Below are positions 36,403 to 46,050 of a stretch of 64,000 nt of DNA, one piece after another. The notes beneath the pieces were generated by a model that saw only the letters and a list, made by a program, of their open reading frames with translations, was not told where the DNA came from and ran no database searches. Made by a program: the position numbers and the translations under genes. The stretch is from Dictyostelium discoideum (lineage: Eukaryota), in the NCBI GenBank assembly GCA_000004695.1, contig CM000153.2, positions 3,840,001 through 3,904,000 on the forward strand, read 5' to 3'. Each line of letters opens with the position of its first letter. The first letter of the stretch is position 1.

Positions 36403-38652
<2,250 letters not shown>

Positions 38653-39685: not shown

Positions 39686-40068
39686 TTATAATATAAATAA
39701 AAAAACTAAAATTAAAAAAAATGGAAATGTAAAATTAGAACTAATTGTATTGAAAGCATTATTTGGTATAGGTTTAATTAGGAAATTTGGATCGTTTGGG
39801 TAAAAATAATGTGACCCTGTTTCACCATTTTTTCTTGTCGAATATGAAATTGCATTATTTGACATTTTTGTTTGTAATTTTATTGAGAGGTTTGTTGAAT
39901 TACAATAATAAAAATAAGTAAAGTCCTCATCACAATCAATACTTCCACCATACAAACAAACACCCTTTTTAAATACTTGTAATCCATCTAATCTATATCT
40001 CCAAATTCTTTCATCAGAAAGTTTTGTTTTACTATAACTTTATTATATAATTTTAATAATGGGGGGGG

Positions 40069-40116
<48 letters not shown>

Positions 40117-40541
40117 CATTATAAATTAGCAATTACCTACGTTTCAGTTATTTGACAAAAATCCTTTTCTTTATAATTTATTATTTTATAAACAACTTTA
40201 AAGGATGTATTTAATACTTGAACGCATTCATTTAGATTTATATAATATCTACAATCTTCTCCACAAAAACAAGACATAGAAAAATAACAATCCCTTGTGC
40301 TATTTTCAAATCCACCTGAACAATCAAGTTGGAAATATGGCATGGAAAAACAATATTCTGTCCCTTTTAAAATTGCTTGGTATTGTATAGGTCCACCCTC
40401 ACAATTTGGGTTATTAAATGATTCAACTTGATAATATTTATCTTTTGATGTACCATAAAACGAATTTCCCATACTACCATTTATTAATATAAATAAAATT
40501 GATATTATAAAATAACTTGGAAAATAAAATTGATTTTTCAT
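39686..40541 (-). CDS. hypothetical Cys-rich secreted protein with hydrophobic C-terminus (possible GPI/TM anchor); join(39686..40031,40141..40541)
   Basis: ORF 40137..40541 (-) has a signal peptide ('MKNQFYFPSYFIISILFILINGSMG') and about 12 Cys. Donor GTAGGT (40140..40135) before the in-frame stop. Acceptor 'ttatag' (40033..40032); the split codon AC|T then reads into ORF 39686..39955 ('...CLYGGSIDCDEDFTYFYYCNST...FTFPFFLILVFLFIL'). 109-nt intron containing a 60-nt homopolymer. Confidence 0.4.
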
Positions 40542-40885
40542 TTTTTTTTTTTTTTTTTTTTTTTGGGGATAAATAATAAATAATATTTTAATGAAATAAA
40601 ATTATCAATATTAAAAATAAAAAGTGTAAAATTATTTTTGTTAATTTTTTTTTTTTTCTAAATAATAAAAAGAAAAAAAAAATAATAAAAAATTAATAAT
40701 CAAAAATAAAAAAAAAAACCACACCCTTCAACCCTCATTTTTTTGTGATCTATTTTTAATTTGTTTTCAATATTTTCAAAATAAAAAAAATAAATAAAAA
40801 AAACAGTGACAGAGGTCAATATTTTTAAAATAAAAAAAAAAATAATAATTATAACGGAAATGATAATTATCTATCTGTGTAACCT

Positions 40886-41073: not shown

Positions 41074-42987
41074 CTAAGTTGAAGTATTTGTTGTAGTTGT
41101 TGTATTTGAATTATTTGATTGTTGTGGTGGTACAAAAGCATTAACTAAAGTTGATAAAGAGTTATTTGATGAATCTAATTCATTTTTTGAATGATTTAAA
41201 AAATCTTTTCTTCTTGTACCTCTTAAAGATGGATAAGCAGTTTTAAAAGTTTGTTTTCTCATTTGACGATGAAATGAAGGATAGAGTAAAGTTTTACGTT
41301 CACCACTATTTTTCAAATCCTCTAAATGAATTTTAATTGAATTTCTAAATAATGATCTACTCTTATTTAAACAAAACAATGGTGCATCTTTTTGAATTGA
41401 TGATGATAATGGTGAATTTGATGGTGATGTTGAAGGTGATGTTGATGTTGATGATGTTGAACTAACTACATTATTTGTGGTGGTGGTAGTAGTCGTTGAT
41501 GAAGTGGATAATGATGATGATGATTTTTCAGAAATTTGTTGACTATTTTTTAAAGATGTAATTAAAGTATGTTGAATATGAATTTGAGTTTTTCTTTTTA
41601 AGATATCTTCATTTCTACATTTTTCACAAATTGATTCACCATTCTTTTCAAAATATTTACCACCTTCTAAAACCTCGTTACAACAGAAACATCTGAAACA
41701 AGTTGGACATAAATTTTTACCATTAACTTTTAAAAACATGCCATCTATATATTGGTTGCATTGGTCACATTTGGTACCTACCAATTCTTCGAAATGATCT
41801 TTACAATAGATTAGACCTTGATGGTCACCCAATTGACCCTCTATTTGAATAGCACATTTAGAACAAACCAAACAAGCTACATGCCATTTAAAATTCAATG
41901 CATCCATCATAACTTCGTCAACTATTGGTAATTTACAACCATAACATGTGATTTCAGAATGAGCTTCATTCATTATATGATTAACATCGCAATCAAAGCA
42001 AACCGGTTTATCGTTTCTAATATAATATAATGATGGATCCATTGGGGTTTCATCAAAACATTCTGAACATTGAAAACATTCTCTATGATAAATACCACAA
42101 TCCAATATAATTGGTCTACTTTGATTAATTGCCAATTCACATTTACTACAAATCATTGATTCAACTGTCATTTGTCGCCTTTTTCCATTATCTTCTAAAT
42201 CATTAAATATCATTGATGGATCAATTGATGATACTGGTGATGGTTCTGTTGATTTATCAATTTCAATAACTAATTTTATAATCTCTTTATCTAATTTATC
42301 ACAAATTTCTGGTATTTTATTCTCCAAAATATTTTCAATATTATCATTATTATTATTATCATCATCATCACCATTTTGTCGATTTTTATTATCAATACAA
42401 CTTGAACATTTAAATCTTCTAATATTATTGATATTTTCAACTATAAAATCTTTACCACCTAAATAACTTGTGCAATAATAACATAAAAAGCATGATCTGT
42501 GATAAATATGGTCACCCAATTCTTCAAAATCTGATGTTTTAATAACTAAATTACAACCTGAACAACTCTTAAAAAATTCAGTACCACAATCTGTACATAA
42601 CATTTCATTATTTTCAAATACACAATCTAAATTATATTTTTTTAAAGAAAAAAAAAAATCAACTTTAGTATATTATATCACAATTTTTCATTTATTCGTT
42701 TTGAATATTTATTTAAAACTTACCACTTTCACCACCCAATGGTTTTGAACATTTTACACAAACTACACATTTCCAATGATAATTTTCAGAATTTCTATTA
42801 ATTGATGGATCAGTTGCAGTTATAGGAAGATTACATTTTGGACAAATAAATGCTAATTTAGATCCTCTATTTTTAACAATTTTACTATTATTACCCCAAG
42901 CTGAAAAACTGTTATTATTAATAATGTTATTATTATTATTATTTTTATTTGAATTCTCATCGTTAATTTTATTATTATTACTATTAA

Positions 42988-43030
<43 letters not shown>

Positions 43031-44386
43031 TGAAATGATTTCAAAAGTATTATTTGTACTTGATGATAAATTTGAAGTTGATGATGTTGATGATGTTAAT
43101 GATTTATTATTACTATTACTATTATGATATAATTTTGCTAAACCAGTTGCATAAGAAGTATTGAATACTCTTTTTTCTTCAACAGATTCTTCTGAAACTG
43201 AACTAGAGTCATCATCTCTGTCATCCTCTAAAAATATTAATTCAATTGAAAAATTACTATGGAAATGTTTTAAATCTTTATGTGCTTTATCAATTTCTTG
43301 TCTTCTTATATGAATTTTAGTTCCTTCAATAAATGCTGTATGAAAACAATAACTAAACATATGACCCTTTGAATTTCTATTAAAAAATTGAATTTGAACA
43401 TCATTAACTAATAAAATATTACCACAATCTAATTCAACTTGTTGATGAATTGTTCCTTTTTTTAATTTCTTATTTTTTTTAAAAAAAAAAATAATAATAA
43501 TAATTATTAATTAATAATTAATTATAATCAATATAGTTAATAAAATAAAATAAATAATACATACAACTGGTTTTGAATAAAATACAGATTTACCTTGTTG
43601 AACAATTGATAAATATGGTTCACAACCACCACCTATATTAAAATTTGGTAATGAATTCATTTTTATCATTGATAAAACTTTTGTAATTGATGGTGGTTTT
43701 GGTATTGGTTTACCATATTGTAGTAATGCTTCGAAATATCTAACATATCTGATTTGACTTGGAATTGTTACACCCTTACTATTGTGTGTTCTTTTATTTG
43801 CAAATAATCTCATTGACTCTGATCCAGTTTGACATTGTTTATTATATAATAGCCAACATGCTAACATTGTACCAGTTCTACCTTTACCTGCTTTACAATG
43901 AACTGCAACTACATTTTCTGGATTTTGATCCAACCACATCTCCTAATTTAAAAAAATAAAAAAAAAAATAAAAAAAATAAAAAAAATAAAAAATTGTTAG
44001 TATGATTGATTGATTTATTAAAAAAAAGTATAAATAAATAAATATAAATATAAATATTCACATACCATATCATTACAAAATTCTGAAATTATATTTAAAG
44101 TTGGTGGACAATGATCATCAAATGGATATTCACTAACTCTATCTTCAAATCTGCAATGTTCATATTTTCTTTCAGAACAAAGATTATAAACTTTATAATG
44201 GTCTGCATGTAATGTATTGAAAAATCTTTGGACATCCCTCATTCTATTCCTATATAATCCTTCCAATGATTCACTAGGAAAACCCATTGCTATAACTCTG
44301 TCTGTGATATATGATAAATCAAGATCAAAATTATACATTTCAAAACGTCTTTTCTTTTTTGATACCATTTTTCTTACTAAGTCCAT
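41074..44386 (-). CDS. PTEN-type lipid/protein phosphatase + C2 domain fused to five LIM zinc-finger domains (~998 aa); join(41074..42626,42724..43468,43565..43942,44066..44386)
   Basis: Exon 1 (ORF 44018..44386) 'MDLVRKMVSKKKRRFEMYNFDLDLSYITDRVIAMGFPSESLEGLYRNRMRDVQRFF...YKVYNLCSERKY...YPFDDHCPPTL...FCNDM' parallels the human PTEN N-terminus ([57 protein letters not shown]...). GTATGT donor 44065. Exon 2 (acceptor AG 43944..43943) 'EMWLDQNPENVVAVHCKAGKGRTGTMLACWLLY...KGVTIPSQIRYVRYF' carries the PTEN P-loop HCKAGKGRTG. GTATGT donor after SKPV (43564). Exon 3 (acceptor AG 43470..43469) is the C2 domain ('GNILLVNDVQIQFFNRNSKGHMFSYCFHTAFI' parallels '[31 protein letters not shown]') plus a poly-N linker, ending in a half LIM finger 'CPKC...HWKCVVCVKCSKPLGGESG' at a GTAAGT donor (42723..42718, phase 1). 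Exon 4 (acceptor 'aatttag', AG 42628..42627) starts with the split codon G|AT then 'CVFENNEMLCTDC', completing LIM1, followed by four more LIM domains (ORF 41074..42603) and an S/T/N-rich tail. Confidence 0.7.
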
Positions 44387-45432: not shown

Positions 45433-46050
45433 TTAAAAACCCATTAAAGTTTTTACTTTTTTAGCTTTATTTTCATCAGACAAACGAGATAATAATTCAA
45501 AAGCAACATATGGAGCAGTTTGTGGATTGTATGATGTAATTACATTTTTATCAATTACAATTGATTGATCTGCGATAACGTTTGCACCGAAATCTCTTAA
45601 TTGTTGTTGTCTAACACTATGTTCACGAAGAGAATTTCTGTAGGTTGTTGCATTTCTACCCTTTAAAATCCCACTTTTACCAAGTGCTAAAGCAGCAACA
45701 CAAACCGAAGCAATATGTTTACCCTTTGAATCGAAATCTCTTATTAATTGTGATACATCTTCACTATAGGCTTCTTCATAAAATGAATAATTTTCAAATC
45801 CACCTGGAATTGCCAATGCATCAAATTCATCCAAAGATTTAACAACTTCACCTAATAATACATCCACTTGAACTTTAACACCAAATGTACTTGTAACCAT
45901 TTTATTATACAATCCACATGTAACAACTTGAATATCTGCTTTATCTTCATTATTATCATCCTCTCTAGCCCAACCCATAACATCAACAAATGGTGTAAAC
46001 TCCATTACTTCAAATCCTTTACATAATAATAATAATATTTTTTTGGTCAT
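45433..46050 (-). CDS. DJ-1/PfpI (ThiJ) family protein, single exon
   Basis: ORF 45433..46050 (-), 205 aa. '[21 protein letters not shown]', '[10 protein letters not shown]' and the nucleophile-elbow-like '[21 protein letters not shown]' fit the DJ-1/PfpI class I glutamine amidotransferase-like fold. Confidence 0.75.

Follow-up and report, generated by a model that had tools for sequence, protein, structure and literature searches.

A gene on the minus strand of Dictyostelium discoideum, at positions 41074-44386 of the 64,000-nucleotide window analyzed here (contig CM000153.2 of assembly GCA_000004695.1, forward-strand positions 3,840,001 to 3,904,000), encodes one protein in which a PTEN-type phosphatase and C2 domain are joined to five LIM domains. 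This gene is lpten. A sequence-only reading of the window had recognized the PTEN, C2 and LIM combination correctly and could not place it in any described family, but the combination is not new: it was published in 2014 as the second PTEN gene of D. discoideum, found through a search of dictyBase (Lusche et al. 2014, PLoS One 9:e108495, PMC4172592). The name derives from its "unique LIM domains", and the protein was described as a phosphatase domain followed by PTEN-C2 and five LIM domains (PMC4172592). The GenBank accession is KF430369, the amplified complementary DNA (cDNA) encodes a putative 114-kDa protein, and both a knockout and an actin15-driven overexpressor of Lpten fused to red fluorescent protein (Lpten-RFP) have been constructed (PMC4172592). 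What the window adds is an independent four-exon model of lpten with comparative support at every junction. Identity with lpten, this gene structure and a proposed mechanism as a 3-phosphatase of phosphatidylinositol 3,4,5-trisphosphate (PI(3,4,5)P3, or PIP3), taken together as one explanation, are very probable.

The four exons splice in frame into a coding sequence (CDS) of 2997 nucleotides (nt), comprising 998 codons and a TAG stop (41076-41074), with a predicted product mass of 113.7 kDa. Exons and introns are listed below in the order of transcription; insertions and deletions (indels) in introns are given relative to the orthologous locus of Dictyostelium firmibasis.

44066..44386, minus strand: exon 1, codons 1-107, with the start codon (ATG, 44386-44384), the KKKRRF motif and the phosphatase domain's first half, which includes FDDH
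43943..44065, minus strand: intron 1, 123 nt, GTATGT...AG, 91.9% A+T; 77% identity to D. firmibasis, with indels of 4, 20, 8 and 16 nt
43565..43942, minus strand: exon 2, codons 108-233, with HCKAGKGRTG at 43900-43871, the KGVTIPSQ TI loop and the start of the C2 domain (residue 190)
43469..43564, minus strand: intron 2, 96 nt, GTATGT...AG, 94.8% A+T; indels of 11 and 4 nt
42724..43468, minus strand: exon 3, codons 234-481 and the first base of codon 482, with the remainder of PTEN_C2 to residue 313 (43229)
43228-42845, then from 42844, minus strand: second part of exon 3, a low-complexity Ser/Asn linker (residues 314-441) followed by the first six zinc ligands of LIM1, from C442
42627..42723, minus strand: intron 3, 97 nt, GTAAGT...AG, 86.6% A+T; indels of 29, 5 and 5 nt
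41074..42626, minus strand: exon 4, codons 482-998 and the stop, with the end of LIM1 (C495, 42586), LIM2 to LIM5 and a Ser/Thr-rich tail

Introns have A+T contents of 87-95% compared with 70-78% in exons, and retention of any one of them ends the open reading frame (ORF) at an in-frame stop within 3-17 codons. The earlier claim that four minus-strand exons read through as one protein of about 998 amino acids (aa) is borne out by the exact coordinates, by in-frame splicing across GT..AG introns, and by the published cDNA and reverse-transcription PCR (RT-PCR). Its assignment of features to exons also stands with one correction. KKKRRF lies in exon 1 (residues 10-15), and both HCKAGKGRTG (122-131) and the TI loop (163-170) lie in exon 2. 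A C2 domain is present as claimed, but it is not confined to exon 3 because it begins at residue 190, within exon 2 (residues 108-233). Exon 3 ends with the first part of LIM1 (442-495), which intron 3 splits at codon 482, and exon 4 carries the end of LIM1, four further LIM domains and the tail.

Primers listed in Table S1 of the 2014 study (PMC4172592) were mapped onto the genomic window and onto the spliced CDS. Exact matches were obtained for eleven of them (P1, P3, P4, P6, P8, lptenRV, seq2, seq3, seq5, seq6 and seq7), with order and orientation as expected:

44566-44544 and 40585-40610: primers P3 and P4, flanking lpten, exact matches
44386-44365: primer P8/lptenFW, start codon region, exact match
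exon 2: primers seq2 and seq3, exact matches
43064-43037: RT-PCR primer P1, exon 3, exact match
42836-42807: primer seq5, exon 3, exact match
42053-42035: primer seq6, exon 4, exact match
41530-41506: primer seq7, exon 4, exact match
41075-41100: primer lptenRV, last codons and two bases of the stop, exact match
40441-40478: primer P6, exact match

RT-PCR primer P2 behaves differently. The genomic window contains no exact copy of its sequence, whereas the spliced CDS matches it exactly at 1442-1469, across the exon 3/4 junction at 1444|1445, so the published transcript data use that junction. The sequence-only reading had named the junction (42723/42627) beforehand as the decisive test of a single product, and the published primer spans its spliced form. 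The predicted mass of the model also agrees with that of the published cDNA product (113.7 versus 114 kDa). Three other printed primers fit less well: lptencDNArv matches 40590-40626 with 4 mismatches, in gene-sense orientation and over the P4 site, and seq1 and seq4 each need 4 mismatches, probably owing to single-base omissions in the printed table.

The same junction bears on whether the locus makes two products instead of one, that is, a PTEN and C2 protein that ends at a GKF stop (42713) when intron 3 is retained and a separate LIM-only protein from a 509-aa ORF that starts at ATG 42603. Both ORFs are mechanically present and the LIM ORF opens with an in-frame ATG. Primer P2, however, spans the spliced junction and lacks an exact genomic match, and the complete coding cDNA that was cloned begins at ATG 44386, with a stated product mass of 114 kDa (PMC4172592). 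Intron 3 falls inside codon 482, in the second zinc finger of LIM1, and a whole LIM1 exists only after splicing; two products would cut it apart, leaving six of its ligands in exon 3 and the other two in exon 4. The GT..AG boundaries of intron 3 are kept in D. firmibasis, where the intron differs by indels that are not multiples of three. Three annotated isolates and every dictyostelid orthologue have a single protein, and transcriptome-derived PTEN-LIM ORFs exist in other organisms. A scan for sigma-70 promoters and terminators around intron 3 gave 3 hits compared with 3.0 in shuffled sequences, but this bacterial model is uninformative about a eukaryotic internal promoter. Two separate products are extremely unlikely, and as an account of the main product the two-gene reading is effectively refuted by the junction-spanning primer, the full cDNA, the split LIM1 and the single-protein orthologues.

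Comparison with close relatives gives further support for a single spliced gene. The closest database protein is P0001, a 982-aa protein from a D. discoideum isolate, and two further isolate proteins, 980 and 985 aa long, belong to its 90%-identity cluster; all three annotated proteins use the identical three junctions. P0001 is identical to the model across the junctions and differs from it only in poly-Asn, poly-Ser and poly-Thr runs and in a few substitutions. The length differences among isolates show rapid repeat-length polymorphism within D. discoideum. For exon and intron comparison, the D. firmibasis orthologue P0002 (1005 aa, locus L001) was used. Identity is 89-95% in exons and 67-77% in introns, and GT/AG is kept at all six splice sites. 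Indels are in multiples of three in 14 of 14 exonic cases (four in exon 3 and ten in exon 4) compared with none of nine in introns, and third codon positions carry 163 of the 268 exonic substitutions. As a pattern of sequence divergence, this comparison supports all three introns.

In the 998-aa product, Pfam places PTEN_C2 (PF10409) at residues 190-313 (E 1.2e-30; cutoff 27.1 bits), finds LIM in five stretches (E 5.5e-37) and matches several dual-specificity phosphatase models to residues 85-170. A LIM pattern with eight ligands (C-x2-C-x16-23-[HC]-x2-[CH]-x2-C-x2-C-x14-24-C-x1-3-[CHD]) matches five times, at residues 442-495, 503-558, 641-695, 709-759 and 768-818. These domain and motif matches are far beyond chance. 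The five LIM domains are arranged 2+1+2, and the parts of the protein beyond LIM1 are distributed over exon 4 as follows:

42564-42397, minus strand: LIM2, residues 503-558
42396-42151, minus strand: acidic/helical linker between LIM2 and LIM3, residues 559-640
42150-41986, minus strand: LIM3, residues 641-695
41946-41794, minus strand: LIM4, residues 709-759
41769-41617, minus strand: LIM5, residues 768-818
41616-41077, minus strand: Ser/Thr-rich tail, residues 819-998

Residues 1-350 match the human PTEN structures 7juk and 1d5r with E values of about 1e-67. The P-loop HCKAGKGRTG (122-131) is identical to residues 123-132 of human PTEN and holds the Cys-X5-Arg signature with the PTEN-specific lysines. 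The TI loop KGVTIPSQ (163-170) is likewise identical to its human counterpart, which contains Thr167, Ile168 and Gln171. FDDH (89-92) aligns with the human FEDH that holds Asp92 and His93, and KKKRRF (10-15) aligns with RNKRRY, the N-terminal PIP2-binding motif of the human protein. The PTEN module looks catalytically intact, from which we infer enzymatic activity, and the earlier description of a catalytically intact PTEN and C2 module fused to five LIM domains is upheld by the match of these motifs to human PTEN and by the Pfam hits to C2 and to LIM in five stretches.

Structure prediction with AlphaFold2 was made for P0001, which is 96% identical to the model, with 20 aligned homologues. 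Mean confidence, given as the predicted local distance difference test (pLDDT), is 64.8. The PTEN and C2 region (1-315) is predicted to be ordered, with block-mean pLDDT mostly 70-96, as are the LIM1-2 and LIM3-5 blocks (about 65-89). Values fall below 50 in the Asn/Ser linker, in the inter-LIM linker and in most of the tail. The inter-LIM linker holds one predicted helix, and within an otherwise disordered tail the motif FRNSIKIHLEDLK is predicted as a moderate-confidence strand-plus-helix island at about P0001 residues 889-900. In an alignment of orthologues, tail motifs kept among dictyostelids are DI[LI]KR[KR]TQ directly after LIM5, the island motif, [LI]YPSFHRQM, FK[TI]AYPS and R[KR]DFL.

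Fusion of PTEN and C2 with LIM domains is not peculiar to D. discoideum. Proteins with this content were found in D. firmibasis, D. purpureum, Tieghemostelium lacteum, Polysphondylium violaceum, Acytostelium subglobosum and Pelomyxa schiedti, and also among several transcriptome-derived and metagenomic sequences. Orthologues of the same architecture, which had been proposed as a search in other species, are thus present in D. purpureum and in P. violaceum. Nearly all PTEN-LIM relatives retain HCKAGKGRTG and the five-LIM layout. Among 23 aligned PTEN-LIM proteins, the P-loop is invariant, and at most positions of catalytic residues and of LIM zinc ligands conservation is complete or at least 90%. 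Because the fusion occurs across dictyostelids and in Pelomyxa with catalytic residues and LIM ligands kept, it is, as judged from these alignments, an old and conserved architecture in the Amoebozoa listed above, and neither a lineage-specific accident nor an assembly artefact.

Some members of the family carry additional domains. P0012 and P0013, EukProt transcriptome proteins of 978-979 aa, have an extra C-terminal FYVE domain (PF01363) with an RKHHCRACG-type motif. Among the metagenomic members, P0019 and P0021 each contain about seven LIM domains, with a PH domain in addition in P0019.

Published genetics gives the setting in which a function for Lpten can be considered. Expression of lpten is induced during aggregation, and knockout cells weakly phenocopy ptenA-: they suppress lateral pseudopods less well but otherwise develop normally (PMC4172592). 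Actin15-driven Lpten-RFP rescues all motility, chemotaxis and developmental defects of ptenA- (PMC4172592). The relevance to Dictyostelium chemotaxis that had been suggested from the sequence is upheld. In the proposed mechanism, the basic N-terminal motif and the C2 domain would put the PTEN catalytic pocket at the inner plasma membrane, where the pocket, whose P-loop, Asp/His loop and TI loop match those of human PTEN, would remove the 3-phosphate of PI(3,4,5)P3. Lpten may then be a second, lower-output PIP3 3-phosphatase that is partly redundant with PtenA. The five LIM domains in their 2+1+2 layout are most likely protein-interaction modules that could fix the place or the partners of Lpten at the cortex; the 2014 authors wrote that they "presumably" mediate protein-protein contacts (PMC4172592).

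Several points weigh against the combined explanation of identity, structure and mechanism. For the P1-P2 product the paper gives "300 bp", probably a nominal size, where a length of 366 bp follows from the spliced model. An exact look-up of the 998-aa sequence in a collection of 15 billion protein sequences found no entry; because that collection does contain models from three wild isolates of D. discoideum, at 96% identity, the reference-strain record seems to be missing, which is not a sign of novelty. In the accessible literature text, there is no direct enzymatic assay of Lpten and no PIP3 measurement, and rescue by overexpression is indirect. The literature also yielded no data on localisation of Lpten-RFP and no LIM-deletion experiment, and searches for later work on the LIM domains of Lpten gave only the 2014 paper and its citations.

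In a rival view of lpten, the main activity of its PTEN module would be protein dephosphorylation, action on another phosphoinositide or scaffolding, and the rescue of ptenA- by 10-fold overexpression would be indirect. In line with this, loss of lpten has only a weak phenotype, and protein-phosphatase activity is known for human PTEN (work listed among the references of PMC4172592). All residue classes that set the PIP3 specificity of PTEN are nevertheless kept, including the HCKAGKGRTG lysines, the TI loop, the Asp/His pair, the N-terminal basic motif and C2, and most of these residues are invariant or nearly so across the 23 PTEN-LIM proteins. The simplest account of the full rescue of ptenA- defects is that Lpten performs the same chemistry. 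A main activity other than PIP3 3-phosphatase is very unlikely, and PIP3 3-phosphatase is retained as the putative function of Lpten.

How the LIM domains could direct such a phosphatase is a separate question. In zyxin, paxillin and FHL proteins, LIM domains in tandem bind F-actin under tension, which requires an array of three or more with a conserved surface Phe in every domain (Sun et al. 2020, bioRxiv 2020.03.06.979245). Rather than serve as a passive adaptor, the LIM array of Lpten might likewise sense strained actin and bring the phosphatase to mechanically loaded cortex. An aromatic residue stands at or near the mechanoresponder Phe position in most LIM domains of the family (F485 in LIM1, F of KDF in LIM2, Y/F in LIM3, mostly F in LIM4 and Y/F in LIM5), and the spacers between LIM1 and LIM2 and between LIM4 and LIM5 are 7-8 residues. 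The arrangement fits such a sensor poorly in other respects. Lpten has no uninterrupted run of at least three LIM domains, with an 82-residue linker between LIM2 and LIM3, and the LIM3-LIM4 spacer, which is 13 residues in D. discoideum, is considerably longer in three orthologues (P0005, P0007 and P0008). By hand alignment, the key position in D. discoideum holds Phe in LIM1 and LIM2, but Tyr in LIM3 and LIM5 and Leu in LIM4 (Phe in most orthologues). The best solved-structure match of LIM4-5 is LIM4-5 of PINCH/LIMS1, and LIM4 of LIMS1 is an example of a non-mechanoresponder (bioRxiv 2020.03.06.979245). Filing the array with strain-sensing LIM proteins was rejected on its 2+1+2 layout with the 82-residue linker, which departs from a tandem array. 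Judged by these residues and spacings, Lpten has only part of the known mechanoresponder-LIM signature, and a strained-actin sensor is unlikely. The broader idea, in which LIM-actin or LIM-adhesion contacts would address a PIP3 phosphatase to the cytoskeleton or to sites of force, at loaded or adhesive cortex, is unlikely to the same degree. If it were true, PI(3,4,5)P3 would be cleared locally at points of cortical tension, and the module, conserved from Dictyostelium to Pelomyxa, would be ancient in Amoebozoa.

Other genes in the window surround lpten on the same strand. Immediately upstream, in the same orientation and syntenic in D. firmibasis locus L001, is a DJ-1/PfpI family gene. The second gene downstream of lpten encodes an FHA kinase of Rad53/Chk2-like type, with an N-terminal FHA domain, a protein kinase domain (Pkinase E 3.4e-80) and long poly-Asn runs. 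Two smaller downstream ORFs have no Pfam match and are probably exons of a 251-aa unannotated gene that lies downstream of lpten in D. firmibasis. A scan of the window for transfer RNA genes found none.

45433-46050, minus strand: 205-aa DJ-1/PfpI family gene
40137-40541, minus strand: 134-aa Cys-rich ORF with a hydrophobic N-terminus
39686-39955, minus strand: 89-aa ORF
36403-38652, minus strand: 749-aa ORF of the FHA kinase

Among known systems, the Lpten of Lusche et al. 2014 is the same locus, with the same start, stop, spliced exon 3/4 junction primers, domain list and mass, and no difference was detected. PtenA and human PTEN resemble Lpten in the PIP2-binding motif at the N-terminus, in the fold of phosphatase and C2 and in P-loop and TI-loop motifs that are identical, and their functions overlap genetically. 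Lpten differs from both in having about 680 extra residues, which make up the low-complexity linker, the five LIM domains and the conserved tail, and its knockout is far milder than that of ptenA-. On the LIM side, the LIM4-5 tandem of PINCH/LIMS1 gives the best alignment with LIM4-5 of Lpten (E 6e-16), followed by paxillin LIM domains at E 7e-12. PINCH/LIMS1 and paxillin are LIM-only or LD-LIM adaptors that carry no enzyme domain, and the sharing of partners with Lpten is not supported. TPTE2/TPIP and Ci-VSP also combine an active PTEN-type phosphatase and C2 with a separate module, and their structures 3awf, 3v0d and 9c49 match Lpten at E values of 1e-59 to 1e-63; the added module is an N-terminal transmembrane voltage sensor in these proteins, whereas it is a C-terminal soluble LIM array in Lpten. 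Tensin and auxilin/GAK likewise have PTEN-like phosphatase and C2 domains fused to protein-interaction domains, with auxilin (3n0a) a weaker match at E 1.8e-30. The PTEN-like domains of tensin and auxilin/GAK have degenerate catalytic motifs; Lpten, in contrast, retains every catalytic motif tested.

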